A DNA stretch of 64,000 nt. It comes from a virus (Duplodnaviria; Heunggongvirae; Uroviricota; Caudoviricetes). The notes beneath the pieces are model-generated. The model was not told the origin of the DNA and ran no database searches. It saw nothing but the letters and a program-made list of their open reading frames with translations. Made by a program: the position numbers and the translations under genes. Every line of letters starts with the position of its first letter. Position 1 is the first letter of the stretch. Positions 13,293 through 39,529 of the stretch are shown here, in pieces. The stretch lies in the IMG/VR virus record IMGVR_UViG_3300021255_000114, positions 231,942-295,941 of that record; one strand, 5' to 3'.

Positions 13293-13936
13293 AATTCTAT
13301 TTCTTTTTCCTTCTTATAGTTATCCGTCTTTATTTCAATCAAAGACTGTAACCTCTCCTTATGCTTTTCAGCCTGAGGTGTTCCAGCAAAATTATAGTAA
13401 TTGAAAAGTATCACCAACATCTCGTCCGTCACCTTGCAATCGGGATATGAATAATAAACATTGGCCGTTAAAAAGTTAGCCTTGGATTTGAAGTGCATGC
13501 GCGACTTATTGTCGAAATCTCTCCAATACACTTCACGACCGTTGATGATGATAGAAAATTCGTTATGCACGAATTTCTGTATGGTCATAAGCCTCTGCTT
13601 TCCGTCGATGACGAGGTTGACCTGGTCGTCTCGATTGGCGTAGTCCTTTATTTCCTGCACAATAACCAAACTGTCAATAGGTTTCTCGAGCAGAATGGAC
13701 ATAATGAATTCACGCTGCTGGACAAGTTCCCACACGTAGGGACGCTGAAGGTTGATGCCGTATGTAGGTAAATAGACATCGAAATCATATATCTTATCCC
13801 CAGGGCCCGGATTGTCCAATGTATCAACAAGACGAAAATCCAAAAGAACCCCCTTGTTAAGATGGATTTCCTTGGGAATTCTATGTAAATTGTTACATTG
13901 TTTTATCTCGTCTAACAAACTCATATCTTTTTTCAT
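13289..13936 (-). CDS. DUF262 domain protein (ParB/GmrSD N-terminal-like)
   Basis: LQRPYVW matches the (F/L)QRxYVW motif and LVIDGKQRLMTI matches DGQQR. Confidence 0.6.
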   Translation of the reverse strand: MKKDMSLLDEIKQCNNLHRIPKEIHLNKGVLLDFRLVDTLDNPGPGDKIYDFDVYLPTYGINLQRPYVWELVQQREFIMSILLEKPIDSLVIVQEIKDYANRDDQVNLVIDGKQRLMTIQKFVHNEFSIIINGREVYWRDFDNKSRMHFKSKANFLTANVYYSYPDCKVTDEMLVILFNYYNFAGTPQAEKHKERLQSLIEIKTDNYKKEKEIEL

Positions 13937-15123: not shown

Positions 15124-16119
15124 CTAAAATTTACGTTTGATAATGTCAGCGGACAACTTGTTCACTGTTTTATTCACTGCTTTCTGCTCATTAGGCGACA
15201 GTTCATTGTACTCAGGGTGATCCTTGACAAATTCCTCAATTACGTCAGCGCAGTACTCCTTGATAAGCAGCCCAAACTGCTTCGGCATTTCAAGTTCACC
15301 AAGATGGCTCATGACGTTGCCAAGTCTCGACTCGGTTACATAGTCCCCCACGCATGAAACAAGCTTGCTGCATGTATCCGAATACACGACATCGGCCTTC
15401 TTATCTGATTTCTCAAACTCATTGAACTTCGGGTTCTTGTTCTTGATGATGATTCGTTCACCATTGGCAAAACGAAGGTCGGAAACGGGTTTGATGACCA
15501 CACCTTCGGCAAAGTTATTCTCGATTCTTGGATAACCAAGACGCTTCCCAATGGTGCTGATGAACACGGGATTGTAAGCAAGACACTCATCAAGCGTTCC
15601 ACGGAACAACTCCTTGTTATAGAAGAAGCCGTACTTCTCGAACAAATCGATACATTCGTCAACACCAAGATACATGGTTTTGTCCGGATATGTCACAAGG
15701 ATGTCGAAAGCGTAGAATTCGTGGTTCGGGGTATACTGAATAGCCTTCTGAATTTTTGGTACATTAGACTCGTATCCATCATATCCACCACCGAACAACT
15801 CTCCGAAAACCTGAACCGAAATAATGGAGTTATCACCGCATTTCAATTTATTGAATACTGAAATGACTTTCTCCTTAAGGTTCTGGTCGGCAAACTCCTG
15901 AAACCCGTAGAATTTGTCGGAATCGGTGAGGACGGAACTACGCTTGCCGGTAACAATTGACATACCGTCGGTAATAACCGAGACATTACAACCGTCAACC
16001 TTCTCAGAAACGGAAAAAAGCATATTGGGACAGCCTAAAAAATTAAGCGACTCTCGTACCTTTTCGATGAAGGGCTCCCTGTAACTGTTCTCAATAGAAC
16101 TGTATTTCTTAAATTCCAT
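15124..16119 (-). CDS. rnl2: RNA ligase, T4 Rnl2-like
   Basis: N-terminus MEFKKYSSIENSYREPFIEKV compares with T4 Rnl2 [27 protein letters not shown] fits motif I. Length about 330 aa. Confidence 0.8.
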   Translation of the reverse strand: MEFKKYSSIENSYREPFIEKVRESLNFLGCPNMLFSVSEKVDGCNVSVITDGMSIVTGKRSSVLTDSDKFYGFQEFADQNLKEKVISVFNKLKCGDNSIISVQVFGELFGGGYDGYESNVPKIQKAIQYTPNHEFYAFDILVTYPDKTMYLGVDECIDLFEKYGFFYNKELFRGTLDECLAYNPVFISTIGKRLGYPRIENNFAEGVVIKPVSDLRFANGERIIIKNKNPKFNEFEKSDKKADVVYSDTCSKLVSCVGDYVTESRLGNVMSHLGELEMPKQFGLLIKEYCADVIEEFVKDHPEYNELSPNEQKAVNKTVNKLSADIIKRKF

Positions 16120-18175: not shown

Positions 18176-19042
18176 TCAGACATCCTGTTCCCCTCCTGTA
18201 TATTGATCACCGTCGGTGCAAGTGATACATCCTTTGGAATTTGTGCATGTCGAGCAAGACAGGGCATCCGTATACTCATAGAAGCAAGGGTAATCACTTG
18301 GATGTGGAATTTCCTTACGCTTGAATCCGGATTTCAGGAACATGCTTACCATCTTCTCCTGTTTCTCATTAAGTTCATATAGATGGGGTGGATAGAGATT
18401 GCCATACGTTTTATTATAGAACTCCTCAAATTCCTTATAGGTGAAGCCGAATTTTTCTTCATCCGACGAACCGGTAAGACCGTCTGAAGGTGTTTTTTTC
18501 ACAAGGTATTCGGGCAATCCCAATGCAAGTCCGAGTTCAATAACCTCCGAAACATGCATATTGATGATAGGCTCGACATCGGCTACAGAATCGCCCCATC
18601 TTGTGCAGAATCCAAGCAAATATTCATCAAGATTTGATGTTCCGATTACACGACCGTTCACTGATTGGGAAACAGCATATAATGTAGACATACGGAGTCT
18701 CGGGCCGAGGTTGATCTTGGTCTGTTCGCTTGCCTTTATTCCCTGGCTCTGCATCTGCATGATGATGTTGGAATACGCCATCTGCATGTTTACCTCAACG
18801 TATTTGATTCCAAGATGACGGCATACGGCGTAACTGTCAGTAATGTCATTCTGCTCCCCGTTAGGCATAAGCACACCGATAACACGGTCTTTGCCAAGTG
18901 CCTCAACGCACAGTGCGGCTACCACTGTCGAATCTTTTCCAGCTGAAATTCCGATAACCGCTTTACACCCATCACCATTTATTTCAAACCATTCCCTAAT
19001 CCACGTTATCAGATAATCTTTGTAACGTTCAATTTTTGTCAT
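18176..19042 (-). CDS. nadE: NH3-dependent NAD+ synthetase
   Basis: GISAGKDS reads as the PP-loop; NLDEYLLGF, RWGD, TPSDGL and FGFTYKEFEEF match NadE blocks. Confidence 0.85.
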   Translation of the reverse strand: MTKIERYKDYLITWIREWFEINGDGCKAVIGISAGKDSTVVAALCVEALGKDRVIGVLMPNGEQNDITDSYAVCRHLGIKYVEVNMQMAYSNIIMQMQSQGIKASEQTKINLGPRLRMSTLYAVSQSVNGRVIGTSNLDEYLLGFCTRWGDSVADVEPIINMHVSEVIELGLALGLPEYLVKKTPSDGLTGSSDEEKFGFTYKEFEEFYNKTYGNLYPPHLYELNEKQEKMVSMFLKSGFKRKEIPHPSDYPCFYEYTDALSCSTCTNSKGCITCTDGDQYTGGEQDV

Positions 19043-20373
19043 TTTTTTCTTATCTTTTTTAAAATGTTTAAAATATCTTTAATAATACTTTTACTATTAT
19101 ATTTTATATAAAATAGCGGAACATTATTTATTTCACATTTATATTTTTTGTTTTCGTCTAATTCAATAATATGTTTATATCTATTAAACGCCCATTCATA
19201 TCCATAGCCGGCAAAATCTACCGGAAAATAATGTTGTTCACCTTGACACTCAATTGCAATGTTATATTCTGGTAAATAAAAGTCAAGATGTTGCAATTCT
19301 AACCATGGTAAATGTTTACTTGTGGCAGGATGAATAAATTTAATTAATAGTTTATTAAGTAATAATGAGGTTGTTTCTTCTAATTGCGATTGTCTACACT
19401 TAGGACAGCCCTGTTTTCTTTTGGTGTGATGGTATGGTGTTTGCCAGAATTCTCCGTGTTCCGGACAGATAATACATACAGGTATATCTGTGTTTATGTA
19501 TTTTACTTTGGAGTAATCATACCTGTCTCCGTGGACTTTTCGCGCCTTTTCCATAAACTCTTCTTTACTTAACTTACGATTCCCATAACAATCTGGGCAA
19601 CCTTTACCTTTTAGATGGTTCGAAGGTGTTTGACAGAACTCACCATGTTCCGGACAGATAATACAAACTTTAGTTTTAACATTTACATAATCAGTTTTTG
19701 AATAATCATATCTGTCTCCATGTACTTTACGTGCTTTCTCAATAAATTCTTCGGTGTTTGATCGGTTTGTGCCTGCACATTTTGGACATCCGTTTCCATG
19801 TAAATGTAACCCTAATTGTTGTATAAAATCTCCGTGTATCGGGCAAGTTATGATAATTTTATCTTTAGCCTTTGCTTCCGTTACTTTATTATAGTTATAT
19901 TTACCACCGTGTGTTTTAACACATCTTTTAATTATTTCTTCTTTTGTTAAAACATATCTTTCACTAGTTTTCTCTAAAGCGCATTTTGGGCATCCGTTTC
20001 CATTTAAATGCGAATTCGGGGTTTGTAGAAAATCTCCGTGTTTTTTGCAAATAATAGTTAACTTTTTGTTGGTTAGAGAATAATTTGCTTTTGAATAGTC
20101 ATACTTATCTCCATGCACTTTTTTAGCTTTTTCAATGAATTCATCATTAGATAATGAACGTTTTGATGATTGTACAATACGAGAACAATTAGGACAACCT
20201 TTACCTTTTAAATGATCAGCAGGTCTTTGCCAGAATTCTCCATGTTCCGGACAGATGATACAAACCTTAGTATGATTGTTAACATAGTTTACATTACCGT
20301 AATCATATTTATTCCCGTGTACTTTTCTACTTTTCTCTTCAAAATTTCTGTTTTTATTACATTGTTCGCACAT
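19039..20373 (-). CDS. zinc-ribbon repeat protein (about six DUF4379-like units) with a C-terminal restriction-endonuclease-fold (D..ExQ) domain
   Basis: Repeated unit KVCIICPEHGEF.Q.P..HLKGKGCP.C. C-terminal FDFYLPEYNIAIECQGEQHY. Paralog of 1..1262. Confidence 0.7.
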   Translation of the reverse strand: MCEQCNKNRNFEEKSRKVHGNKYDYGNVNYVNNHTKVCIICPEHGEFWQRPADHLKGKGCPNCSRIVQSSKRSLSNDEFIEKAKKVHGDKYDYSKANYSLTNKKLTIICKKHGDFLQTPNSHLNGNGCPKCALEKTSERYVLTKEEIIKRCVKTHGGKYNYNKVTEAKAKDKIIITCPIHGDFIQQLGLHLHGNGCPKCAGTNRSNTEEFIEKARKVHGDRYDYSKTDYVNVKTKVCIICPEHGEFCQTPSNHLKGKGCPDCYGNRKLSKEEFMEKARKVHGDRYDYSKVKYINTDIPVCIICPEHGEFWQTPYHHTKRKQGCPKCRQSQLEETTSLLLNKLLIKFIHPATSKHLPWLELQHLDFYLPEYNIAIECQGEQHYFPVDFAGYGYEWAFNRYKHIIELDENKKYKCEINNVPLFYIKYNSKSIIKDILNILKKIRKK

Positions 20374-20387
20374 TTATGTTAAATTAA

Positions 20388-20568
20388 CTCAATTATTTTC
20401 GTCTATTTCATAAGGCAAATTTTCCCAGTATTTTTTCATGGATTCCGATATTTTCTTTTTGGTCTCTTCATCCATTTTCTTGCCATAACGATGATTTTTT
20501 GCACCAAGTTTGGCTTGACGCATTTTTTCCTTTGTTTCCTCGCTTAATTTCCTTTGGGTTCTTGCCAT
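20388..20568 (-). CDS. small NUMOD3-like DNA-binding protein (59 aa)
   Basis: Unlisted ORF MARTQRKLSEETKEKMRQAKLGAKNHRYGKKMDEETKKKISESMKK; LS.ETK.K...AK.G repeats of this kind occur in homing-endonuclease DNA-binding modules. Confidence 0.35.
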
Positions 20569-20610
20569 TGTACTTTATTGAACTTTATTTAACTATAAAT
20601 ATGTAGTAAA

Positions 20611-22116
20611 TTAGAAATCTGGATGCAAACGATTACGGATTTCGGTAAGTGATTGTTCCTGAACCATTTTACCATCTTTGAAGTAGAGTATGTAAGCCGA
20701 ATCCTCACCATGAAGAGGTTCGCGTTCCGTTGGGTCAATTCCATCAGCAAATTTAAACATACCCGTTTCAGGGTCATTCCAAACTTCACAGCACCCACGC
20801 TGACTTTTTTTGAACGAAAAACCGGATTCACGATCAGTCTTTGGATCTTTAAAAATTGGATAGAATTTCCCATCAACAATACCTCCAGTTGCTTTAATTG
20901 CGATTGAAAAAGTGTCACGAGTTAATGGATGGAAACAATTATTAGTATCTTTATAACACGTAAAACTAAATGAACCGGCACCGAAGTATATGTTATTTGC
21001 GGCAAAGCCTTCAAGCATTAAACGTTTATATATGGTAGCAGAAATGCTCGGTAATACTCCGTCCCCGTAAACCACACCAATATGCGGGTCAAGGACTTTA
21101 TAACCCTTGGTATTGACGGTTCCACCAAAGATATTCCAAAGCGATTCAACGGTCTTAACTGAAATATCGATAATATCACCACTATCGGGACGGATAAGCA
21201 GTTTGCCGTTATGGGCAAGGATTTCGTCTTTAAGCGACGGAATAATATCATTCACCATTCGCCAATAATCGTAAGTATCTGATACCATGGAGAATGAAGC
21301 ATTTGGATATACTTCTGTAAGAAGGCGTTTCACCATTGCCCGTTCATCACCTGTAATGGCGAAGTCAGCGGCCATAACACTGTGCTCAGTACTGATAGCG
21401 TTTGTAGCAAAATTATTCTCGCTGTTATTCTCGTTATAGTAGTGTTCGATGTATTTGACGGCGGGAATAGTAGCTGTTCCGCTGAATGAAGCAAGCCATG
21501 CGGCTGAAGCCTTCTCAGCCTCCTGAAGCGAACTCATGCCACGGAAACCGAAATCGGAAATGGCTTTGCTATGCGGAACATTATCGTCCACTGTTTTACC
21601 GTACCATTCATCAACAACATCACGGTAGATATTACCTACGGTGGCATGGATGCAGGGTTTCCAGAGTTCAGACGACAAAAGGCTCTCCACCCACTGTACA
21701 ACCCAGGCGAAATCAGGGTGCGTGTTCGTAATTTCGATGCACGGGATACCCATGTTTACAACGGAACCCTCAGGTAATGCGCGGATTTCAAGCGGCAGAT
21801 AACCTAAGCGATGCAGATCACGTACTTTTTCAGGGTTGTAATTACCCGCGCCGAACATGCTATCAACCACACGGGTGTACTCTTCCATCATTTCATCCTC
21901 AGGGACGCTGAAGAAATTCTCGTTGAAATGGTCGATAAGGTATTTCTTGATGAATCCCTGCAAACCGAAAAAGACCATCTTGTCCAACTCAGGTATACGG
22001 TTTCTGCGAGGGGTGAAATAAGACCAAAGTTTAGTCAAACCTTTTGGGTACTGTTCCGCATGGGTTTGCTTGTAACCGTCTGACAATAAGAGACTTATAG
22101 TTTCGTGATTTTTCAT
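20611..22116 (-). CDS. nadV: nicotinamide phosphoribosyltransferase (Nampt)
   Basis: SDGYKQTHAEQYP, DFGFRG, IRPDSGD, VYGDGV and YFGAGS align with human and bacterial Nampt. Confidence 0.9.
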   Translation of the reverse strand: MKNHETISLLLSDGYKQTHAEQYPKGLTKLWSYFTPRRNRIPELDKMVFFGLQGFIKKYLIDHFNENFFSVPEDEMMEEYTRVVDSMFGAGNYNPEKVRDLHRLGYLPLEIRALPEGSVVNMGIPCIEITNTHPDFAWVVQWVESLLSSELWKPCIHATVGNIYRDVVDEWYGKTVDDNVPHSKAISDFGFRGMSSLQEAEKASAAWLASFSGTATIPAVKYIEHYYNENNSENNFATNAISTEHSVMAADFAITGDERAMVKRLLTEVYPNASFSMVSDTYDYWRMVNDIIPSLKDEILAHNGKLLIRPDSGDIIDISVKTVESLWNIFGGTVNTKGYKVLDPHIGVVYGDGVLPSISATIYKRLMLEGFAANNIYFGAGSFSFTCYKDTNNCFHPLTRDTFSIAIKATGGIVDGKFYPIFKDPKTDRESGFSFKKSQRGCCEVWNDPETGMFKFADGIDPTEREPLHGEDSAYILYFKDGKMVQEQSLTEIRNRLHPDF

Positions 22117-22117
22117 A

Positions 22118-22597
22118 TTAATTTATTTTAATATTAAACTTCTTAAGTGATTCTATTGCGGCATCTCGTGTTTTAACTATACGGTCTATTCTATTGTTTG
22201 TTTCTTGGAACGCACATTTGATAACCTTTTTTGCTGTGTCCATCATGTTTTCTTCTCCCGTAAATAAACCAGATGGAAGGTGGAAATATCTACTATTGGT
22301 GTCCCAAGAACAGCGCATAGTAACAACATCAGAGCCATATAGATTAATATCTTCGTAACAATTAGGTTTTATATGGAAAGATGTAAAATCTTTTGAAGGA
22401 AGTTTTTCTCCACCAAAACAATTCCATTGATATTCAAGTACTGACATGCCAATGAATTCTTCAATACTTTGCTTTAATTCGTTGTATAATTCCTTGAATT
22501 TTTTCGGCGTGTATTGAAAATTAACGTTATCACAATGAAATGTTAAAACATCATTTTCATCTTCGACGTATTGACGTCCTGTTTTTGCATCTACCAT
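22118..22597 (-). CDS. hypothetical protein
   Basis: 159-aa ORF with a 1-nt gap after nadV. Confidence 0.5.
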   Translation of the reverse strand: MVDAKTGRQYVEDENDVLTFHCDNVNFQYTPKKFKELYNELKQSIEEFIGMSVLEYQWNCFGGEKLPSKDFTSFHIKPNCYEDINLYGSDVVTMRCSWDTNSRYFHLPSGLFTGEENMMDTAKKVIKCAFQETNNRIDRIVKTRDAAIESLKKFNIKIN

Positions 22598-22611
22598 TAT
22601 CTATCTTATTT

Positions 22612-22944
22612 TTATTTGTTTTCTTCTTTTTTGTTCAAATTATCGAGGATTTTCTCTGACATATCAATGAGATTATTAAGCCTTTTGTAGTGTTCCTGAG
22701 GTTCATAGCACGGACAATAGTCGATTGAATATTCAGGATATGTTTTTTCCTTATTGCGTTCGTGCCAAGCCTTGTATTGATCAGGATTTGTGTCGCAGAA
22801 ATTCTCGTAGTGGTCGAAAAAACTGCTTCTCATCCAAACACGGCCATTTTCGTCCTTCTCTTCCTCCGTACGATACACTTCCTTTGTCTTGTGGTGGATG
22901 CAGCAACTCATGCAGTTTCCGCATATTCTTTTCTCTTGTTCCAT
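22612..22944 (-). CDS. Cys/His-rich small protein
   Basis: CGNCMSCCIHH...CPCY. Confidence 0.5.
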   Translation of the reverse strand: MEQEKRICGNCMSCCIHHKTKEVYRTEEEKDENGRVWMRSSFFDHYENFCDTNPDQYKAWHERNKEKTYPEYSIDYCPCYEPQEHYKRLNNLIDMSEKILDNLNKKEENK

Positions 22945-22954
22945 AATCTGTTAT

Positions 22955-22974
22955 TTTGTTTCAACGGTGCAAAG
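22955..22974 (-). promoter_or_regulatory. conserved phage promoter copy
   Basis: ttcaacggtgcaaagatacc. Confidence 0.55.
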
Positions 22975-22980
22975 ATACCA

Positions 22981-23005
22981 TAAAAAAACCGATATTCAAT
23001 ATACC
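22981..23005 (-). terminator. intrinsic terminator (AAACCG...CGGTTT followed by T7)
   Basis: Hairpin plus T-run between genes 23022 and 22944. Confidence 0.5.
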
Positions 23006-23021
23006 GGTTTCTTAAATTTTC

Positions 23022-23882
23022 TTAAAACTTGAATGTACTCGGTGTACACTTGCTTTGTTTCATTCTCTGATTGGCGTATTGCTTGTTGCCCTTAATAATC
23101 GGTTTGGACCAATCAGTAGGCTTCTCGGCCAACCACGGGAATTTCTCGCATATCTCTTTTGCCTTGTCGAAATTCCATGAATCAAACAATTCAGCACCAC
23201 TGTTCATTCCAGACAACATGCGGAAATTGATGAACTCCCTTGGAATTTCAACCTGCCCCTCAAGCGGATTCTTGCTCTTATTCACTTTGGTTGTACCAGG
23301 AACAATCCAAAAACCTGATTTAGCCAATTCCGGATTTGCATCCATTTTTATTCCTTTGATAGGTTGGCCTTCAGGTGCGTTTTTAACTTCGTTATAGTTG
23401 AAACGGGTTCTTGTATGGTCGGAAGCAGTCCCCCTGAAATCCATAACAACCCAAAGTTGCCCATCAATCATTTCATAATCGAAAGTCAAACCAACTCCGT
23501 CTGGAAGGCCCGTTGATTGGAATACTCGATACCATGCGTCGGTTGCACGGATTGAAGGATGGTTAGGTGGTACTTTTGAACCGTCATCCAATACAAGCAT
23601 GCCATTTTCAATACTCTTAATTGTGTTGAAATAAAGGTTTCTCACTTGCTGTGCCCTTCCGCCGGTTCCGATTATCCTGTTTCCATCGGCATCAACGGCG
23701 GTTCTTTGCATCATTCTACATAGTATGTCACCAGGGGCAAATGCCCTGTCCGTATGTCCCAATTTTGGAATGGAGTCTCCATTTTGTTGAAATTCGGCGT
23801 TCGTCATCTCATTCAACGTCTCGCGTATGATGGATTTCAACGTATCTTCGTTTAAATGTATAATCTGTTTTGCCATAACCAT
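23022..23882 (-). CDS. hypothetical protein
   Basis: 286-aa ORF. Confidence 0.55.
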   Translation of the reverse strand: MVMAKQIIHLNEDTLKSIIRETLNEMTNAEFQQNGDSIPKLGHTDRAFAPGDILCRMMQRTAVDADGNRIIGTGGRAQQVRNLYFNTIKSIENGMLVLDDGSKVPPNHPSIRATDAWYRVFQSTGLPDGVGLTFDYEMIDGQLWVVMDFRGTASDHTRTRFNYNEVKNAPEGQPIKGIKMDANPELAKSGFWIVPGTTKVNKSKNPLEGQVEIPREFINFRMLSGMNSGAELFDSWNFDKAKEICEKFPWLAEKPTDWSKPIIKGNKQYANQRMKQSKCTPSTFKF

Positions 23883-23962
23883 AAATAGTTAGGTGGATAA
23901 GATTTGAATTACTTTGTCGGCATCTTCCTCCGTTATTCCGTGTTTGCCGCCAAACTTTAAAA

Positions 23963-23985
23963 GACCGCCGGTATGATCGGCGGTC
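23963..23985 (-). terminator. intrinsic terminator (GACCGCCG-gtatgat-CGGCGGTC)
   Basis: Perfect 8-bp stem followed by TTTTAA on the minus strand. Confidence 0.5.
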
Positions 23986-24054
23986 TGTTCAAGGATGTTT
24001 TTCTTGAAAAAAACTTCATGGTGCAAACACCCATCAATATCCAAAATACGGATA

Positions 24055-24363
24055 TCATGCAAGTTTGAACATCATATATCCTTCAGGACAATCCTGCATA
24101 GGCATTTCACACAGCAAGTCTTCATGTTCATCAACGACAACCACTCCTTGGAAAAACTCAAATAGTTTTGTCATTGCATCAACCTCTTTTAAGTCCGATT
24201 CATGAATATAGTATTCACGTCCGATCCTATAGGATTGGTCTTCCGTTTTTTCGAAATTCTTGATATTAAAAGTTTCATCAAGTTGCTTTAACGCCTCATC
24301 AACGGGCACTTCTTTGTACTTTTTTCCTTCCATCTTATTTTGATTTAAAACATCTAACCCCAC
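24055..24363 (-). CDS. hypothetical protein
   Basis: 102-aa ORF. Confidence 0.45.
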   Translation of the reverse strand: MGLDVLNQNKMEGKKYKEVPVDEALKQLDETFNIKNFEKTEDQSYRIGREYYIHESDLKEVDAMTKLFEFFQGVVVVDEHEDLLCEMPMQDCPEGYMMFKLA

Positions 24364-24394
24364 AAATATACTACATCCTTTTGGATTTCCGCCA

Positions 24395-25234
24395 TTATTC
24401 GGAAGAAATGTTTGAAATTTTTTTAAGAAAATCCTTTTTTACCTCTTTTTCCGTAAACTGACCGGCCGGTGATACCACCCATTTATTACGTTCAAACGTA
24501 CCGTATTCAGGTGATTCCAATTGAATTTTCTGTTTATAGCATACACGACCGAATTTCAACCCATCATCATATTCATACCAATTGATATTGCATTTGTCAA
24601 GTAGGAGTTGCACTTGTTCATCACTGTGTTTGCTCACTAGTTCCTTATGGGGAAGGTATGTTTGCGCCGCCTGTTGTTTGGAATTGCGGATGCAGTCCAA
24701 CTGGCGATATAGGAACCAAGCATACGCATCGTTCTCGTTAGGCACATTCCATGCCTTGCAGTCGAATTCATACAGCGGAGCATTCTCAAGTGTATCAATC
24801 GCCATATCAAGGATATCGTTACCGGGAAGAGAATCAGGAATCTTCTCGAGTCTGTTCGCAGTCATAATGTTGGTGAATTTGGTTGCGGCCATTGATGCGA
24901 CAATAGACTGAATTTTGCATAATCTGTATCCGAAAAATGATGTGACCTCGGAATTTTCGTCTTTCGGAATATCGGATACGACAAGTGAAATCTCGTCACT
25001 TTGACAATAGCCGAACTTGCACCCTTGTACATTGGCACACAGGTATTGCATTGTCTCGTTCATTGCCTCGACGAACTTCTTGTCGAACGGTTTTTCGAAT
25101 TTGTTCTTGATTTTCCTTGAGAAATTCTTTCCATCGACCATTATACAAATATAACTGTTAGGTTCAAGCCTGTGGTCTGATGCCGAACGGAGTCGTTCGC
25201 ATTTCTGTTTAAGTGTTTCCTCTATTTTTTGCAT
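24395..25234 (-). CDS. Thg1-like protein (tRNA-His guanylyltransferase family, 3'-5' polymerase)
   Basis: IMVDGKNFSRK...KPFD compares with Thg1 VVRLDGRNFHRF...KPND, and YCQSDEISLV with YGQSDEYSFV. Confidence 0.75.
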   Translation of the reverse strand: MQKIEETLKQKCERLRSASDHRLEPNSYICIMVDGKNFSRKIKNKFEKPFDKKFVEAMNETMQYLCANVQGCKFGYCQSDEISLVVSDIPKDENSEVTSFFGYRLCKIQSIVASMAATKFTNIMTANRLEKIPDSLPGNDILDMAIDTLENAPLYEFDCKAWNVPNENDAYAWFLYRQLDCIRNSKQQAAQTYLPHKELVSKHSDEQVQLLLDKCNINWYEYDDGLKFGRVCYKQKIQLESPEYGTFERNKWVVSPAGQFTEKEVKKDFLKKISNISSE

Positions 25235-25247
25235 TTTCTTCTATATA

Positions 25248-25913
25248 TTAATGAGTTGTATATTTTGCTGCCACTTTTTTGACAACTTTTAAGTATTCAT
25301 CCGCTTCGGCATAATTGAGATGTGCCTTGAGGTAGGTTTCTTTGTCCGGTTTTACTTCGTTGAAACGGAAGTGTTCCCACAGTATTTTGTCCAATATGGA
25401 AAGTTTCCAATTGTCATAAACCGCATAACCACAATAGCTATCGCCATGGCGTTGGGTCGTGTAATGTTTCCTTTTACCTGATACAGGTCTCATCCCGAAG
25501 AAATTCCTCGCATTTTTCGCAACATCGGATGTACCGCTTGTGGATTCGATTTTGTACTGTGCCATGATGATGTCCGGATACCAAGCCTTGCAACTTACGA
25601 TATATGCAAAAACAATACTGTCATTGAACGGGATATTCTTCTTTCCCTCCAATGTTGCCTGTGCTATACGGATATGAAGTGTGTCGGATTCTTCCTCCAT
25701 TTCAACGGTTCTTGTCAGTATCTCAATCTGTGCCTCCAAAGTACTGATGATTTTATCCTGTTTAAGACTCTCATCAATCCACAGAATAAGCACAATGGAG
25801 AACACACTCAAGACCAAGTACAATGCATTGTCATACAAAAACTGCTTGATTCGTGAAACTGGCTTCAGTTCGATGTTTTCTTTATCGAACCGGTATAAAC
25901 GGTTATTTTCCAT
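25248..25913 (-). CDS. peptidoglycan hydrolase (glucosaminidase family) with an N-terminal transmembrane anchor
   Basis: Hydrophobic segment LYLVLSVFSIVLILWI, and AQYKIESTSGTSDVAKNARNFFGMR matches the glucosaminidase domain pattern. Confidence 0.6.
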   Translation of the reverse strand: MENNRLYRFDKENIELKPVSRIKQFLYDNALYLVLSVFSIVLILWIDESLKQDKIISTLEAQIEILTRTVEMEEESDTLHIRIAQATLEGKKNIPFNDSIVFAYIVSCKAWYPDIIMAQYKIESTSGTSDVAKNARNFFGMRPVSGKRKHYTTQRHGDSYCGYAVYDNWKLSILDKILWEHFRFNEVKPDKETYLKAHLNYAEADEYLKVVKKVAAKYTTH

Positions 25914-25914
25914 G

Positions 25915-27105
25915 TTACTTGAATAATTTGATGTTCGATTCGTTTGAATCGTTGTAGTAGAAATTCTTGAAATGTATGTCGAAACAACTCGATATCATCG
26001 TCATTGCTGACTGCATCCCATATGGTTGCGTTAGGTCAACGGTTTCGGTAAAGCATCCGTTATACATTTCCAGAAATCCATGATTAATAGCCACATCCAT
26101 ATGAGTGACAACAAGGTTGAAATCAGCAAGACCTTTCTTGTCGATATAGTCTAACCTATGGCGGTCAACGGCCCGCTCGAACAAACGACGCTCCAACTGG
26201 CCGACTTTGAAATTCCCCTGGTATTCATTGAATACATTGGTTTCGTGTTTGTCCGATAAATCATAAGTTAACGGTGCCTGAGGAATATATCCGTTTCCGT
26301 GCCGTGTAAGATATGTACGGGTAACCATATAGACTTCAGGCTTGATATTAAACTCATAGTGCTCCATGAACTCAAGCGGATTCTCAAGGCCGACCGGTGT
26401 GGCTGTCACATTCGGGAAAAAGCCGTCCTTGGCGTCAAGCAGCAATCCTTGTGTACCCTCAAAGATAACCACGTCATGTGACCTAATCTCGTCAATCATC
26501 ATTAGGCGATTTTTCCATACCTTATAGAACTTAGCGTTGCAGGCCTCAACATACATCCTCTCAAGCTCGGGATTGCGCTCCATTCCATAGTAATCACATA
26601 CGCTTTGGAACTGTTTCTCCTTGTGCTTGTACGTCAGAAATTGCGAGAAGGTATATAGGAAATAGTCGCTTGACATGTGGCGTTTCTTGCATGCCCACAC
26701 CCCCTTGCCACATGTCCCGTCCTTTAACGCAGATTCATCATTACGGTTTGAAATCACATCATATGGGGTAATGCATTCGATGTAGTCCGCAATATTGATA
26801 AGCGGTACACTATCCATCTTTGTTTGAAGAACCTTATATTCATTGTATGCACAGATAGGGTCAAAAAGAGAACCGTAGATATAATACGTCGGAACCCCCA
26901 ACAGGACACCACTCCCATACGAAGAACAGATGTGTTCAACCCCGTCGTTTACAACCGTGTGCGCAGCCTGAGGCCCCCCACAATAACGCACAACACACAC
27001 CGACTTGCCTTTCTCGATGGCCTCTCTGCAAAGCCATTGCACTGTCACTCCCTTACCTTCATCGCCAAATAAAGACCCGATTACTATTTTAACCTCTTTT
27101 TCCAT
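25915..27105 (-). CDS. adenylosuccinate synthetase family protein (PurA or PurZ-like)
   Basis: GSLFGDEGKGV reads as the PurA P-loop, and RYCGGPQAAHTV compares with the canonical RYQGGHNAGHT block. Confidence 0.8.
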   Translation of the reverse strand: MEKEVKIVIGSLFGDEGKGVTVQWLCREAIEKGKSVCVVRYCGGPQAAHTVVNDGVEHICSSYGSGVLLGVPTYYIYGSLFDPICAYNEYKVLQTKMDSVPLINIADYIECITPYDVISNRNDESALKDGTCGKGVWACKKRHMSSDYFLYTFSQFLTYKHKEKQFQSVCDYYGMERNPELERMYVEACNAKFYKVWKNRLMMIDEIRSHDVVIFEGTQGLLLDAKDGFFPNVTATPVGLENPLEFMEHYEFNIKPEVYMVTRTYLTRHGNGYIPQAPLTYDLSDKHETNVFNEYQGNFKVGQLERRLFERAVDRHRLDYIDKKGLADFNLVVTHMDVAINHGFLEMYNGCFTETVDLTQPYGMQSAMTMISSCFDIHFKNFYYNDSNESNIKLFK

Positions 27106-30773: not shown

Positions 30774-31487
30774 TTATAGTGTGAAAAGCCTTTCGGTTGC
30801 CAATTTTGTTTTGTGAGGGTTCTGTGCGGTCTTGACATCCATCTGCCATATGCATTTGAAATCATCGGGCATTTCGTATTCGGAAACAAATATTGTGTGC
30901 CCCTCTTGCTTCTTCTCCCTACACCACTGATAGAACCTCCCATAATCGAAATTCTTGCTCGTCACATACTGCTTTGTGTTCTTATATGGCGGGTCGCAGT
31001 AGATAATGGACTCCTTTGGTATCAGTAATTCATCGTAGTTTTCTGCATAGAACTCGGTTCCGCGCAGGAATGGCACCTGAGCCAACGTGTTTTTGATATT
31101 CTCTCCGATATAGTCTCTCCCCTTGACATCGTGTCCCGAATAGCCGCCGTCGAAAAACCTTCCATTGAAAGAACCCATGAATCCGACCCATCCTATAATG
31201 TAGTCAGGGTATCGTCCGTCTTTTTTGTTGTAACTGTCTCTGACGTCGTTGTAGAAATTACGCATGATGAGTCTTGGGACATCCGGGTCGTCGTGACACA
31301 ACTCTTTCCACATGGCAATGAGGTATCTGTTATTGTCGCTTGCCATTCTGTACCCTTTGACGTGTTCGAGAACGCTGCAACTGCCGCAGAATGGCTCAAC
31401 CCAATACTGTTGAGCGTCTTTTCTTTCCGCGAGCATTATTGGAAGGATATACTTTACGTATCTTCGCTTGTTTCCCTGATATTTCAT
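30774..31487 (-). CDS. dam: DNA N6-adenine methyltransferase (Dam/D12 class)
   Basis: WVEPFCGSCSV reads as the FxGxG AdoMet-binding loop, and IIYCDPPY supplies the DPPY motif. Confidence 0.8.
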   Translation of the reverse strand: MKYQGNKRRYVKYILPIMLAERKDAQQYWVEPFCGSCSVLEHVKGYRMASDNNRYLIAMWKELCHDDPDVPRLIMRNFYNDVRDSYNKKDGRYPDYIIGWVGFMGSFNGRFFDGGYSGHDVKGRDYIGENIKNTLAQVPFLRGTEFYAENYDELLIPKESIIYCDPPYKNTKQYVTSKNFDYGRFYQWCREKKQEGHTIFVSEYEMPDDFKCIWQMDVKTAQNPHKTKLATERLFTL

Positions 31488-34582: not shown

Positions 34583-36862
34583 TTATTTTTTCATTAATCC
34601 GTGTTCGGGGTCATAGGCATAAAGGCATGTTATAAAGGGTGTTTCGCTTGACAAAGCAAGTCTCCAGTACATATCAAACAATTTCGACCATCTTGGTCCC
34701 TGTTTGTTTTTTCTGTACCCTCTCGCAGATTTGTGACGGTATTTTTCTTGAAGTTCCGGGTGTTTATCTATATAATCATACATATACCGTGTTTCTCCAT
34801 CCCTAAACAGATTCTCGTCCAAATAATTGGCTATGATTGGTTCCTTCATCCTATCAGCAATTATGAAACGTTGGTTGTTTGGGTTTCCTCTTAAAGTTTG
34901 CCTTTGACTTATCCGCTTAATGTTATCGTCGCCCTTTGATGAATACAGGTATACCATATTGTGCAGGACCTTCTGTGATTCTTTTTTGCATTCATCGCTG
35001 TATTTTTCATATTCTTTTTTATAGGACGAATCATTGTATATCGCTTCGAACAAGGCAACTATTTCCGATTCATTATATACTTTTTCAAACACAACATTCT
35101 CCATGAACAACCGACGTCCAAGTAAACACAAACCGTGGTTGTATTTAGCGCGAACAGCCGCATACTCCGAGTTGTCAAAACCGAGCTTTTTGTTCGTGTC
35201 AAACGGGAGTATGTATATGTTGGCCACTTTTTCTCCACCCCAACGGTTAACACGCCCCAAACCCTGTTGGAATTCGTGCATCGGAAGATAGGCATCAGTA
35301 TAGAAATTATTCGCTGATATATCATGGCCGGTGGTTACCAGGTTTGTACAAACCATCACACCTTCTTCATTCCTGTTTTTTGAGAAATGGCGATACATAT
35401 CGGTAATATGCTTATTCATATCATGAGTGGTGTAATTGCTATGGCATAGCACGGTATTATTTTTGGTGTTTTTGGCTTTAACACCGTCATAGAGTTTTTG
35501 GGACGTTTTTACACCGTTAACCATTGCGATGGAATTATTCTCCATAGACAAATCAAACGTCTCGAGTTGATGGAAGATATAACGTTTATCCTGCGCACCT
35601 TTATAATGCCTCGGCTCAGTGTATACATGCCTTTTAAATGATTTATACAAGAGCGATTGCGGTGTTGCGCTGCAAAGTATTGTTTTTGCATTATAGTTTA
35701 ACCTTGACAAATTCATTAATTGGAATGCGCGATTACACCCGCTTCTATCCATATATGTATGATATTCGTCAAAAGCAACCGTACGGACCATAACCTCGAA
35801 GGCCATTTCCTTCATGTCATTGTCCCTTATAAAGGGATTGAAGAAATTATCTATGTTTGTGACGATTATATCGTTGTTAACATTATCCTTCAATCCTTGA
35901 ACCCAACCTCCTCCTTTTTTATAATATAAACCTAGTGTTATCTTAATATTATACACTTTTAAAAGATTGGCCAATGAACCATAAAGCGCATCACAAAGGT
36001 TGTCTGTGGGGCAGACGAACATCGCCTTTTTACCTATGGCAAGTACACTACGAAGCAGGATGTCGGTTTTCCCGAATCCGGTATTCTCGTTTATTTCGAA
36101 TATGTGAAAATTGGAATTGGCAATTTTTCCCACATATTCGCTTTGAATATTGAAACGGTATGAATCATATCCGTCGGGCTTTTGTATGTCGGAAACACCA
36201 AAAGTAACAGGCAGTTTCAAACCATTGTCCATAAATGTATCGTCAATGATGTAATCCCGGTCCGATTTTGCAATTAAAGCAAACAGCGTTTGATACGGCA
36301 CATCCTTTATATCACTTTTCGCAACATCATCCTGAAACAGATACAAGCATTCGTCTGAAAAGGTGGTGTCAGTTTCTGAGATATTATTTACCTCCAACTG
36401 GAAATCGGGATTCTTCCTATTGTTGATTTCAACCAATTCATGTATAACAGGCAATATTGCAGATTCCTCGGTCTTTATTTTTTTAAGTGCCGAATCAATC
36501 TTGAACGACAACCCGCAATAAGGATGATGTCCCAACAACACTCGCATGACCGTGGAATACATCAACCTGACTGAATTCATCTGCGCATAATCACAATTGG
36601 CCTTTGGTTTTATGTAAAGCCAAAATATCAAGGCACTTGAAACATTGTGCAGCACCTCAGGTGTTTCATCGTTTTTCAAATAAGCCTGAAACTCGTTCAT
36701 TATCTTTCCAAGGTCATGGAACAATCCTACCGTATATGCACATTTACGCCACGTTTCATTGGTAATATATTTTCCCGCAAGGAATTTGCAGTTGTCAGCA
36801 ACCGTTGTGGAATGCTCCATAAACGATATAACCGGCTTTGTTTTTGCTATCAGTTCTTTCAT
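34583..36862 (-). CDS. cas3: Cas3 HD nuclease-helicase
   Basis: HD-domain residues MEHS...LFHDLGK...GHH. Helicase Walker A NTGFGKTD. DExH box AFDEYHTY. Motif VI QQGLGRVNR. Confidence 0.85.
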   Translation of the reverse strand: MKELIAKTKPVISFMEHSTTVADNCKFLAGKYITNETWRKCAYTVGLFHDLGKIMNEFQAYLKNDETPEVLHNVSSALIFWLYIKPKANCDYAQMNSVRLMYSTVMRVLLGHHPYCGLSFKIDSALKKIKTEESAILPVIHELVEINNRKNPDFQLEVNNISETDTTFSDECLYLFQDDVAKSDIKDVPYQTLFALIAKSDRDYIIDDTFMDNGLKLPVTFGVSDIQKPDGYDSYRFNIQSEYVGKIANSNFHIFEINENTGFGKTDILLRSVLAIGKKAMFVCPTDNLCDALYGSLANLLKVYNIKITLGLYYKKGGGWVQGLKDNVNNDIIVTNIDNFFNPFIRDNDMKEMAFEVMVRTVAFDEYHTYMDRSGCNRAFQLMNLSRLNYNAKTILCSATPQSLLYKSFKRHVYTEPRHYKGAQDKRYIFHQLETFDLSMENNSIAMVNGVKTSQKLYDGVKAKNTKNNTVLCHSNYTTHDMNKHITDMYRHFSKNRNEEGVMVCTNLVTTGHDISANNFYTDAYLPMHEFQQGLGRVNRWGGEKVANIYILPFDTNKKLGFDNSEYAAVRAKYNHGLCLLGRRLFMENVVFEKVYNESEIVALFEAIYNDSSYKKEYEKYSDECKKESQKVLHNMVYLYSSKGDDNIKRISQRQTLRGNPNNQRFIIADRMKEPIIANYLDENLFRDGETRYMYDYIDKHPELQEKYRHKSARGYRKNKQGPRWSKLFDMYWRLALSSETPFITCLYAYDPEHGLMKK

Positions 36863-36901
36863 GGTGTAAATATACTATTTTGAATTGAAATATTGCTTGA
36901 A

Positions 36902-37660
36902 ATTTTTAATCAAATAAAATTATATTATTAAAGAGTAGTTGTTATCACTATGTAAAATGGTACGTAATTGTTAATCAATTGGAAATTATATTATTAAATA
37001 GTTGTATGCCCTACAAAGCATTGATTCCATAAAATTGTTAATTGAATAAAGATTGTATTATTAAAGAGTTGACTTGATAGCAATGATGACATCCCATAGA
37101 TTGTTAATCAATTAAAAATCATATTATTAAAGAGTCTCGTGTTGCTTCGTTCACTGCCTGGTCCCATTGTTAATCAAATAGAAATTATATTATTAAACAG
37201 TAGGCTGTGGTAGTTATGCCAATGGCAGTATATTGTTAATCAATTAAAAATCGTATTATTAAACAGTAATAACGGTGAACTTGTGGAAGCTGTAGAATTG
37301 TTAATCAATTAAAAATCGTATTATTAAACAGTCGGTGGGAAGATTTGGGGCGCGTTTCAAAATTGTTAATCAATTAAAAATCGTATTATTAAACAGTGTT
37401 AACGGTATAAGCGTTATATCATACGCATTGTTAATCAATTAAAAATCGTATTATTAAACAGTTCGCTTAATGAACAAATTCAATAAACTAAAATTGTTAA
37501 TCAATTAAAAATCGTATTATTAAACAGTGGTGCGCTTACCCTATGCAACTCCCTTCTTATTGTTAATCAATTAAAAATCGTATTATTAAACAGTTGTTAA
37601 CGGCATTTCCGTGATTAGTTACGCATTGTTAATCAATTAAAAATCGTATTATTAAACAGT
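36902..37660 (-). CRISPR. CRISPR array with 12 repeats of 36 bp (plus strand ATTGTTAATCAATTAAAAATCGTATTATTAAACAGT) and 11 spacers of 29-31 bp
   Basis: Seven perfect repeats (37232-37660) sit at the cas6-proximal end. Five progressively degenerate repeats (36902-37201) sit at the cas3-proximal end. A 62-bp AT-rich leader lies at 37661-37722. Read on the minus strand the repeat starts ACTGTTTAAT, which resembles type I-B repeats. Confidence 0.9.
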
Positions 37661-37722
37661 ACACTCCTTATAAAGCATTGTATTTATGTGCCTTACAAAG
37701 AGTTTTATATTTAAAAAATGCA

Positions 37723-38439
37723 TTAAACACCACCAAATGTGAATTTTTGAGTCATATTTTTCCTTTCTAATACTTCAATAGCGCCGAAACCGCTTCCGGT
37801 TGACCCCCCGATTCCAAGACTATAAAGAAGTTTTCTTGTCTTTGGCTTGCCATAAACCGTGGCAACAAACGATGTGCAAGGATTGAATACATCACCAACG
37901 AATATGTTTTTAACTTTAATATTCTCCGGTTTATTGAATTCAATTCTGAAAGTTTCATCAAGAATACCATTATTGGATAATTTCCTTTTGCAATGCTCAG
38001 TAAGCACTGTCTCCCATCCTTCATCACGGTATGTTATTTTCCTTCCGTCTTTTATAAGCAATACCGGTGACAAAGTCTTAATCACGTCATACGTTTTTCC
38101 CACCTTGCTATCGTCCTCGCACACTATATGTGTAACTCTTCTCCCGAATAAAACCTTGTTTTTACTATTGATGCTTTTGATAACCCCAGCAACAATTCGG
38201 TTGGTGATATCGTCCGAAGCACTTGAAACTTGGATATAAGGATTCATAACGGGTACAAGGCATTTCTTATCATTGGATGCTACAAGGCCCTGCAACCCTG
38301 AAATGGAATACGGGCTGAAACTCGAATGGATTCCTTCATCCCTATCAAACAGGTGGTTGTAGATGAAACCGTTTACTTCACGCTGATTCTTGAACGGGAT
38401 GCTATCCCCATCCTTTTCGAATATAATTTTAACTATCAT
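37723..38439 (-). CDS. cas6: Cas6 crRNA endoribonuclease
   Basis: 238 aa with the C-terminal glycine-rich loop GIGGSTGSGFG (GhGx5GhG), located directly next to the array leader. Confidence 0.8.
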   Translation of the reverse strand: MIVKIIFEKDGDSIPFKNQREVNGFIYNHLFDRDEGIHSSFSPYSISGLQGLVASNDKKCLVPVMNPYIQVSSASDDITNRIVAGVIKSINSKNKVLFGRRVTHIVCEDDSKVGKTYDVIKTLSPVLLIKDGRKITYRDEGWETVLTEHCKRKLSNNGILDETFRIEFNKPENIKVKNIFVGDVFNPCTSFVATVYGKPKTRKLLYSLGIGGSTGSGFGAIEVLERKNMTQKFTFGGV

Positions 38440-39529
38440 GTTTTATTGTTTCGTTTAGTTTGTCAAACACTTCGTTGTTGAACGTAGGAACGTCGGTGCA
38501 TACATAACGCATACTGCAATACCCATAACTCTCAATCTGATCTTCACTTAGTAAATCATATGGTAGCAGCACATCATCCACACCATATTCAGACCATTTA
38601 AGCACATCAACAATTCCACCCTCAAGGAACCTTGCGGTTTGCATGCCGGTAATAAATTGTTCCACATATTCCTCGTTTAGTTTGAATACGAATTCCCCGT
38701 TAAGGATTATGACTTTCTGTGGATAACCCTTCTCCGTCTTGATAAACGGGCCCGTGAGTTCAGAGCGGTAAGTTGTTCCGTTGACGAAATTCAATAGATT
38801 GGCATTTTTCAGATATTCCATCACCTTGACAGCGTTTACCTGCATCGCAGCCGAAATTGCAAACGTAAGCGTGGCATATTCTCTCGCATTCCGGCCGGTT
38901 ATTTCTGATATAAGCGAAACCAAACCATCCATTGCACCCTGTTTCTTTGAATTGCAACGAAGGTATCGCATATCAAACTGCTCCCAACAAACAGTGTCTA
39001 TGGAATTATTTGAAATCGTGCTATCATTGTTTGTTGCATGGTAATTCGCGAAATGCCCGTAAGACCACTTAACAACTTCGGTGTTCGGTCGTTTCAAACC
39101 GGTTTTACATGTGTGGAAATACGGGGCATACAATCCAACAAACCCATCAAGAACCATTTCGTCGATATCGGCATTTCTTTTGGCACCCTCCGGACCGTGA
39201 AACGTTGATACCGGTTTTTTCTGTAGCATTACGGCATACATATTGGATGCGGTATGAAGGGTGAAGGGATACAAAATATTCCCCTCCACCTTGTCCACAT
39301 CCTTCATATCATACCACAAAATTGAATCAGGTGAACATTTATCACGCATACCCTTCTCACCTGTGTATTTGTTATATACAATATCAAATTTATATGATTT
39401 AGGTTTAGATGATTTCTTTGGTTTATCTTCCGTTACCACATTGTTTTCATCCGATTCACGCTTCCTTATCTTATCATAATAAGGCAATTTGGCATTCTCA
39501 AACCTTAGTCTTACCCAATAATCATTCAT
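38429..39529 (-). CDS. putative Cascade subunit (Cas5/Cas7-family candidate)
   Basis: 366-aa gene in the cas operon, overlapping its neighbours by 4 and 11 nt. No diagnostic motif was recognised. Confidence 0.45.
   Translation of the reverse strand: MNDYWVRLRFENAKLPYYDKIRKRESDENNVVTEDKPKKSSKPKSYKFDIVYNKYTGEKGMRDKCSPDSILWYDMKDVDKVEGNILYPFTLHTASNMYAVMLQKKPVSTFHGPEGAKRNADIDEMVLDGFVGLYAPYFHTCKTGLKRPNTEVVKWSYGHFANYHATNNDSTISNNSIDTVCWEQFDMRYLRCNSKKQGAMDGLVSLISEITGRNAREYATLTFAISAAMQVNAVKVMEYLKNANLLNFVNGTTYRSELTGPFIKTEKGYPQKVIILNGEFVFKLNEEYVEQFITGMQTARFLEGGIVDVLKWSEYGVDDVLLPYDLLSEDQIESYGYCSMRYVCTDVPTFNNEVFDKLNETIKHDS

Follow-up and report, generated by a model that had tools for sequence, protein, structure and literature searches.

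Whether a phage relative of adenylosuccinate synthetase (PurA) is the housekeeping enzyme, its paralog PurZ, or something else is the question raised by a gene in a 64,000-nucleotide stretch of a Caudoviricetes genome (positions 231,942 to 295,941 of the IMG/VR record IMGVR_UViG_3300021255_000114; the whole of this stretch is here called the window). The gene lies at positions 25915-27105 of the window, on the minus strand, and an earlier note made from the sequence alone had described it as a PurA-family homolog, possibly PurZ, an enzyme of the 2-aminoadenine pathway. We find that it encodes an intact PurA relative (the target in the following) which belongs to a third clade, represented by PHROG 1211, apart from housekeeping PurA and from PurZ.

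Identification and phylogenetic position of the PurA-like gene

The open reading frame (ORF) listing of the window contains an ATG-to-TAA ORF of 396 amino acids that spans exactly these positions, with a G+C content of 44% (39% for the window) and a stop codon that abuts the start of the next gene. The encoded protein matches Pfam PF00709 with E=1.3e-28 (100 bits; cut-off 27) over residues 7-276, corresponding to profile positions 1-274 of 416 only; its best PHROG is PHROG 1211 (E=5.7e-40), and PurA chains of the PDB match its sequence with E-values down to 1e-13. Homology of the target to the PurA superfamily is far beyond chance. An adenylosuccinate-synthetase fold is predicted by its AlphaFold2 (AF2) model (predicted local distance difference test, pLDDT, 91.7; predicted template modelling score, pTM, 0.93): in a Foldseek search with this model, ranks 1-31 were all canonical PurA chains (E ~1e-19 to 1e-14), and PurZ0 and PurZ chains appeared only at ranks 32-43, below canonical PurA. 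The Pfam, PHROG, PDB and Foldseek matches thus bear out the family assignment of the earlier note, and both motifs that it had named are present, GDEGKG at residues 14-19 and GGPQAAHT (GGxxAAHT) at residues 43-50.

Compared with relatives of ~80% identity, the target showed nonsynonymous differences (pN) of 0.11-0.15 and saturated synonymous differences (pS) of 0.85-0.92 (pN/pS ~0.13-0.16); since pN lies far below pS, purifying selection on the gene is strong. That the copy is a pseudogene or decaying was also considered and rejected, because all 50 of the 50 family-invariant positions are intact and because of the same low pN. No near-identical DNA was found in GenBank phages.

In a neighbour-joining tree of 89 sequences, including seven canonical PurA and four PurZ/PurZ0, the target fell into a separate clade in 100 of 100 bootstraps; PurZ and PurZ0 formed a monophylum without the target (61/100), and canonical PurA was recovered in 80/100. 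By tblastn, E. coli PurA detected 79/79 viral relatives of the target, and PurZ 0/79. The target is not an orthodox PurA: it scored 76.6 bits with the PurA equivalog TIGR00184 (cut-off 395.55) and 82 bits with NF002223 (cut-off 402), the matches spanning profile positions 1-280 only, whereas the E. coli control reached 697 and 688 bits.

Conserved and replaced active-site residues

The target, its near relatives, 67 viral, three cultured-phage and two plasmid proteins were compared with PurA and PurZ in a table of functional sites (E. coli PurA numbering for residues in three-letter code, unless assigned to the target), and invariance was judged on an 85-sequence family alignment (A1), which has 50 invariant columns. 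Kept and invariant are Gly12, Asp13, Lys16, His41, Gln224, Thr239, Arg272 and the guanine-specifying Asp333. The P-loop GDEGKG (27049..27066; like all motifs below on the minus strand), in which D15 corresponds to the catalytic Asp13 and K18 to Lys16, is invariant in the 85 family members; both PurZ references read GSTGKG at this position. The catalytic His41 is H49 of GGPQAAHT (26956..26979), a motif in which both H49 and Q46 are invariant, and the purine-base contact Gln224 is kept as Q219 of the invariant FEGTQGLLLD (residues 215-224; 26434..26463).

A different picture emerges at the sugar-phosphate end of the substrate. In E. coli PurA complexes, Asn38, Thr129 and Thr239 are ligands of the 5'-phosphate of inosine monophosphate (IMP). 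At these three positions and at the fourth ligand, Arg143', the target has Gln46, Cys132, Thr234 and no conserved Arg, i.e., three of the four are changed and Thr239 alone is kept. Cys132 lies in GTCGKG (residues 130-135; 26701..26718), where K134 stands for Arg131; C132 is invariant in A1, and the position is Cys in the clade, with Val in some members. In the S-2L PurZ structure, the Arg143 equivalent comes from the other subunit and pairs with the phosphate of the nucleotide, and the Val273 equivalent touches C2' of the ribose (PMC8342488). This Val273, common to PurA and PurZ, is His in the target clade (H269 of the invariant clade signature TRHGNG, residues 267-272; 26290..26307).

The site of L-aspartate is likewise altered. 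Arg303 balances O2' of IMP and binds aspartate, which is also touched by the tip of the loop (PMC8342488). The PurA loop GATTGRRRR (Thr300-Thr301-Gly-Arg303-Arg-Arg305) is swapped in the target for a loop four residues shorter (NEYQGNF-K versus NEFGATTGRRRR), which lies in ETNVFNEYQGNFKVG (residues 288-302; 26200..26244) with E288, N290, Q296, F299 and G302 invariant; Thr301 and Arg303 are lost and Arg305 is replaced by the invariant Gln296. At the guanine site, THMD (residues 334-337; 26095..26106; T334, H335 and D337 invariant in A1) aligns with the PurA motif TKLD, so that of the recognition trio Asp333 is kept as D337, Lys331 is replaced by His335 and Ser414 by Asn, in a C-terminal alignment that is uncertain.

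Seven residues that are identical in PurA and PurZ are thus changed in the clade (Asn38, Thr129, Arg143, Val273, Thr301, Arg303, Arg305), and the replacement set Gln46, Cys132, His269 and Gln296 is conserved across it. The corresponding clade signatures, Gln38, Cys/Val129, His273 (TRHG) and Gln305 (QGxF-K/R), are all present in the target and conserved in the 67 viral, three cultured-phage and two plasmid members. Since the catalytic residues are kept and the shared pocket residues changed, the catalytic engine is intact and the sugar-phosphate and L-aspartate pockets are rebuilt.

Proposed reaction

From this residue pattern we infer the chemistry and the substrates, and consider it probable, though far from certain, that the target is a GTP-dependent ligase which activates the 6-oxo group of a purine and differs from PurA and PurZ in the amine, in the sugar-phosphate end of the acceptor, or in both. 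The enzyme would bind a nucleoside triphosphate (NTP), probably GTP because Asp333 is kept, and phosphorylate the C6 oxygen of a hypoxanthine-type purine nucleotide, after which an amine would displace the phosphate. As the NTP-binding and C6-oxygen-phosphorylating residues are all kept, the first half-reaction is probably preserved; as the residues contacting the 5'-phosphate, the ribose and L-aspartate are replaced, the sugar-phosphate end of the substrate, the displacing amine, or both are probably different. If the product is indeed a new nucleotide derivative, the chemistry of PurA and PurZ would extend to a third pathway.

Several points weigh against this proposal. The aspartate pocket could be rebuilt from the conserved E288, N290 and K300, in which case use of IMP and aspartate would be possible, and, at 15-20% identity, the alignment is uncertain both near Arg143 and at the C-terminal guanine motif. 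The neighbour-joining tree rests on saturated distances with a modest outgroup sampling (seven PurA, four PurZ/PurZ0), the search covered 64 kb, so that genes of the 2-aminoadenine (Z) pathway or a von Willebrand factor A (vWA) partner (see below) could sit elsewhere in the genome, and no functional or biochemical test of any clade member was found in the literature.

The target might instead be a genuine, very divergent adenylosuccinate synthetase (IMP + Asp + GTP -> adenylosuccinate), serving as an auxiliary metabolic gene that raises the AMP/ATP supply, e.g., for the adjacent enzymes of nicotinamide adenine dinucleotide (NAD) salvage, but we regard this as unlikely. Canonical PurA (EC 6.3.4.4; E. 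coli 1ADE/1CG0, H. pylori 6ZXQ) is the closest structure, with a fold that is alike over the whole length (Foldseek E down to 2.6e-19, template modelling score up to 0.78); it shares with the target the P-loop GDEGKG with Asp13 and Lys16, as well as His41, Gln224, Thr239, Arg272 and the guanine-binding Asp333, and both the tblastn detection of all 79 relatives by E. coli PurA, with none by PurZ, and the presence of nucleotide- and NAD-metabolism genes among the neighbours would fit such a role. However, the target is only 14-20% identical to PurA and ~35 residues shorter, falls outside the canonical clade in all 100 bootstraps and misses both equivalog cut-offs by more than 300 bits. The changes in three of the four IMP 5'-phosphate ligands and in all three aspartate-site residues (among them Asn38 to Gln, Thr129 to Cys, an unconserved Arg143 and Arg305 to Gln) are conserved in the clade, and are accompanied by Val273 to His, Lys331 to His and a replacement of the STGP motif by NDS. 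Clade members also occur in bacteria with their own purA, and are mostly coupled to a vWA protein and often to a kinase-like protein, which is unexpected for a simple biosynthetic duplicate. A canonical bacterial PurA with intact IMP residues, which the earlier note had named as the finding that would speak against PurZ, is therefore not what is there, since the IMP-phosphate and aspartate sites are remodelled.

Distribution of the clade and the vWA module

The third clade, for which we favour a PurA-type ligase with a different amine or acceptor, is widespread. In a big protein database 805 clusters match the target at E<=1e-5; those matching over the full length are ~45% identical and 360-410 amino acids long, and many come from contigs of 95-105 kb, some from contigs of 170-365 kb. 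At least 523 clade loci were confirmed in IMG/VR. The phage members include the 'PurA-like' genes of Mycobacterium cluster C phages, the Rhizobium RHph_TM phages and Vibrio phage pv27; plasmid members were found in Rhodococcus and Agrobacterium vitis, and chromosomal members in Chryseobacterium, Flavobacterium, Neolewinella, Chitinophaga and many metagenome-assembled genomes (MAGs). The best relatives of the target in the genome collection lie on contigs that were binned into Bacteroidales/Paludibacteraceae MAGs of rumen and herbivore-gut origin. The PurA-like proteins of cultured phages (cluster C Bxz1 and Cane17 gp253, Rhizobium RHph_TM, Vibrio pv27) fall into the same clade (100/100), are ~30% identical to the target over 85% of the length and share with it the signatures GD[EA]GKG, TRHG and QGxF-K/R and the conserved Asp333.

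De novo clustering of neighbouring genes revealed, in 75 of the 79 viral loci, a gene for a protein of ~290 amino acids directly upstream and in the same orientation (median gap -1.5 bp), and this partner lies within 5 kb of the PurA-like gene in 62 of 80 genomic loci. It corresponds to phrog_2971, whose function is unannotated, and to at least 7,533 database clusters. Pfam gave no match for the partner or for the small and 350-amino-acid ORFs upstream, and the partner profile had no match among PDB sequences; the only matches of the partner's predicted structure (pLDDT 74.8) are vWA/integrin I domains, and the DVTGSMG motif of the protein is consistent with the vWA fold, so that we regard it as a putative vWA-domain protein. 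Each of the PurA-like genes of cultured phages is preceded by this gene, as seen in pv27, RHph_TM2_3B and Cane17, and so are those of Rhodococcus pDK3, A. vitis and Desulfamplus. Further upstream follows a small ORF of ~125 amino acids, an ORF of ~350 amino acids or, in the actinobacterial and rhizobial versions of the module, a gene for a kinase-like protein. This protein matches Pkinase at 4e-9 in Cane17 (gp250) and has an HPDR motif in Rhodococcus and A. vitis. A Nudix gene is often near the module, which in Desulfamplus lies among RelE, PIN, HicB and BrxC genes. The order small ORF or kinase-like gene, vWA gene (phrog_2971), PurA-like gene and, often, Nudix gene recurs in the IMG/VR loci L007-L085 and in six further loci, the intervals being L004:5028-5915, L006:4974-5897, L005:2915-4732, L094:2906-3892, L096:3057-3989 and L100:6001-6858. 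The analysis thus defines a widespread and strongly conserved enzyme-plus-vWA module of two to four genes that spans phages, plasmids and bacterial chromosomes; no description of a PurA-like/vWA module was found in the literature searched, and the PADLOC defence models matched neither the PurA-like enzyme nor its partner. In most genomes the enzyme would work as a module with the vWA protein.

Intein insertions affect both members of the module, each in a different genome. The partner of Cane17 (gp251; L005:2915-4732) carries an intein-like insert and has 605 instead of ~290 amino acids, with weak, sub-threshold Hint and intein-splicing matches, and a PurA-like gene on a 678-kb JGI contig (L101:6913-9321) carries Intein_splicing and LAGLIDADG domains.

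The target and its 80%-identical relatives have no vWA partner in view, and are found beside genes for a glucosaminidase, Thg1, NAMPT and NadE instead. A hidden Markov model of the partner found no homolog in a six-frame translation of the window (best E 0.66), and the partner was not seen in the 10 kb upstream of the gene in the close relative L087. Since the sub-lineage of the target is nested among partner-bearing members in the tree, loss or relocation of the partner is a derived state: the lineage of the window has lost the adjacency of the partner or moved the partner elsewhere.

The module could perhaps indicate that the protein makes no small-molecule product at all, and is a PurA-derived protein that acts as a GTP-dependent regulator or scaffold, or else as an enzyme joining a nucleotide to a macromolecular target, for which the vWA partner or an RNA end would be candidates. 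The remodelled 5'-phosphate and aspartate pockets, the tight coupling to a protein-interaction domain of the vWA type whose N-terminus is conserved (and to a protein-kinase-like gene in actinobacterial versions), the Thg1-like gene in the conserved block of the window and the RNA ligases 9-20 kb away could all be accommodated in this way. Yet the invariance of Asp13, His41 and Gln224 speaks for a PurA-type reaction with a purine; a macromolecular substrate has no direct evidence, and the copy in the window, although without the partner, is under strong purifying selection. We therefore think this explanation rather improbable, and retain a ligase that activates the 6-oxo group of a purine nucleotide.

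More broadly, PHROG 1211 might represent a third functional class, in which PurA-type 6-oxo activation is combined with a different amine or a non-monophosphate 5' end. In large phages, on plasmids and in the defence islands of bacteria, this class would act as a module with the vWA protein, often joined by kinase-like and Nudix proteins, and would yield a novel modified nucleotide or nucleotide conjugate that serves in the conflict between phage and host; the copy in the window would be a partner-independent derivative recruited into a block for NAD salvage and tRNA repair. We put this forward only tentatively, as a possible but doubtful extension.

Comparison with PurZ

PurZ and PurZ0 (succino-amino-deoxyadenylate synthase; NF038379; phiVC8 6FM1, S-2L 7ODX, PurZ0 7VF6) condense deoxyguanosine monophosphate (dGMP) with aspartate and so start the synthesis of the triphosphate dZTP, leading to 2-aminoadenine in phage DNA. 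They resemble the target as phage-encoded PF00709 homologs of reduced length and in the overall fold, and the best PHROG of the target is labelled '2-aminooxy adenylosuccinate synthetase', a label which RefSeq passes on to the cultured relatives but which is a family-level annotation, not a test. In a survey from 2026 that covered 481 PF00709 proteins of phages, Asp13 was replaced by Ser in 100% of 147 PurZ/PurZ0, and was Asp in 99% of true PurA (PMC12884076); the mutation S14D abolishes the selectivity of PurZ (bioRxiv 10.1101/2025.10.22.683976). The target has Asp at position 13 (D15), versus Ser in the phiVC8, S-2L, Gordonia and Microbacterium PurZ/PurZ0 references. The retained Asp13 argues against a 2-amino-purine (dGMP) substrate, and the product would therefore not be a precursor of 2-aminoadenine. 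PurZ further has an adenine-stacking Phe331 with Asn or Gln at 333, where the target has His335 and Asp337, and it keeps Asn38, Thr129, Arg143, Val273 and Arg305, none of which is found in the target. With the NCBIfam PurZ model NF038379 (cut-off 300 bits) the target scored 36.2, i.e., ~260 bits short and below the 127 of E. coli PurA, whereas phiVC8 reached 397 and S-2L 350.

PurZ travels with DatZ, MazZ and DpoZ, or with DutZ and DmtZ, and the target has none of these features. A tblastn search with DatZ, MazZ, DpoZ and PurZ of S-2L and phiVC8 gave no match in the 64-kb window or within 10 kb of the 79 viral relatives, and a Pfam scan of the window showed no HD (dATPase-type), MazG-type pyrophosphatase, dUTPase-like or family-A DNA polymerase (PolA) domain. 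Among GenBank phages, the named groups with matches to phiVC8 PurZ are Arthrobacter, Vibrio, Microbacterium, Acinetobacter and Gordonia phages, and those with matches to phiVC8 DatZ are Vibrio, Aeromonas, Acinetobacter and Shewanella phages; the target matches 202 Mycobacterium cluster C and 10 Rhizobium phages, and both hosts are outside the named groups of the two tallies.

PurZ identity is thus rejected and extremely improbable, given the retained Asp13, the low NF038379 score, the position outside the PurZ/PurZ0 clade, the structural ranking of PurZ under all canonical PurA and the lack of DatZ, MazZ and DpoZ in the window and the 79 loci. The 2-aminoadenine role suggested by the earlier note accordingly falls. 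Of the checks that it had proposed, the phylogeny placed the target with neither PurA nor PurZ, the search for MazZ, DatZ and DpoZ was negative at the loci covered, and inspection of the substrate pocket showed a retained Asp13, which speaks against PurZ, and changed IMP-phosphate ligands Asn38, Thr129 and Arg143, which speak against canonical PurA.

These results bear on annotation, since PF00709 matches in phage genomes are now routinely taken as a sign of Z-DNA. More than 200 RefSeq records of cluster C mycobacteriophages and Rhizobium phages carry the label '2-aminooxy adenylosuccinate synthetase', inherited from PHROG 1211, on proteins that keep Asp13 and fail the PurZ model. The label is an untested family-level annotation, unsupported for the clade, and its use in RefSeq and PHROG is probably a systematic over-annotation. 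A simple check, based on the residue at position 13 (Asp or Ser), TRHG, the QGxF loop and the NF038379 score, tells the clade apart from true PurZ.

A gene of the Ralstonia solanacearum megaplasmid CP071915 (J4H89_23115; L095:3425-5140) encodes an AAA_18 nucleotide-kinase-like domain fused to a short archaeal-type PurA that shares with PurZ a Ser in place of Asp13 and a Phe at 331. It scored 195 bits with the PurZ model and 266 bits with NF003295, both under the cut-off, and may be a bacterial PurZ-related enzyme.

Genomic neighbourhood

The window contains ~110 ORFs, nearly all on the minus strand. The immediate neighbours of the PurA-like gene are genes for glucosaminidase/endolysin-like and Thg1-like proteins, NAMPT and NAD synthase, which form part of a downstream block (18176..25913, minus strand) that accompanies the gene in its closest relatives too, as judged from Pfam, PHROGs and gene order. 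Proceeding away from the PurA-like gene, and all on the minus strand, this block comprises the glucosaminidase/endolysin-like gene (25248-25913; Pfam/PHROG), a gene for a Thg1-like tRNA-His guanylyltransferase (24395-25234; phrog_4717, 2.6e-50), ORF286 (23022-23882), separated from the latter by small ORFs, NAMPT (20611-22116; phrog_448, 2e-157), a gene for a zinc-finger repeat protein (19039-20373) and NAD synthase (18176-19042; Pfam/PHROG). The two closest relatives, L086 and L087 (80-81% identity), keep the order PurA-like, glucosaminidase, Thg1, small ORF, HAD, ORF284, NAMPT and NAD synthase, and add genes for TelA, PNK3P and a T4 endonuclease V-like protein.

Two RNA ligases are encoded 9-20 kb from the PurA-like gene (5283-5963 and 15124-16119), one of them Rnl2-like (phrog_548, 1.5e-62). 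The window thus pairs NAD salvage (NAMPT and NAD synthase, 18176-22116) with RNA repair (a Thg1-like 3'-5' polymerase, the Rnl2-like and the second RNA ligase), a set that resembles a toolkit for countering defences based on NAD depletion and tRNA cleavage. A general link of the clade with NAD was considered and rejected as anecdotal, because NAMPT was found in only three of the 79 viral loci (within 10 kb, as were NadE and Thg1, each 3/79) and in two of 80 genomic loci. Of the window's neighbours SPFH alone recurs around the relatives (14/79). Other NAD links near clade genes are a phosphoribosyltransferase (PRTase) with an NMNAT/Nudix gene in a Rhizobium phage, an NMNAT-type gene on the 678-kb contig and an NrtR-like Nudix gene in Rhodococcus.

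The earlier note had placed the PurA-like gene in a cluster with a Dam methyltransferase, a radical-SAM enzyme and DUF262. All three genes are present, but the clustering is only loose: Dam (30774-31487) lies 3.7 kb upstream, DUF262/GmrSD_N (13289-13936) at a distance of 12 kb and the radical-SAM gene (5960-7537) at 18 kb.

Other content of the window

Pfam and PHROG scans further revealed an SPFH protein, a protein with a type IX secretion system (T9SS) sorting tail and DUF932, and no structural hallmark gene in the window, whose content looks like the accessory region of a large phage. A CRISPR-Cas locus (34583-40536) lies on the same strand as the phage-like genes. It consists of Cas3 (34583-36862), an array of ~12 repeats of ~36 nt (ATTGTTAATCAATTAAAAATCGTATTATTAAACAGT) with a period of 65-67 (~36900-37670), which degenerate towards 36900, an I-B-like Cas6 (37723-38439) and two genes without annotation that could be Cas8/Cas7 (38429-39529 and 39526-40536); the repeat had no exact match in the reference genome collection.

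An expanded gene family is represented by at least six small paralogous ORFs (8399-8794, 12532-12924, 12936-13292, 42665-43075, 43303-43641 and 44206-44628), which share the motifs LLKDLCARLPYG, KPYLRPMSSMTEEE and DWLNSHHFDYRGLIEKGLALEAPEGMY and have no Pfam match. Treble-clef zinc-finger units (DUF723/DUF4379, HGxKYDYS...CxxHGxF) are repeated in two proteins, both of which have a C-terminal domain after the repeats: one is the zinc-finger repeat protein of the conserved block (19039-20373, minus strand), and the other is encoded at 252-1262 (plus strand) by the only sizeable plus-strand gene in the window.

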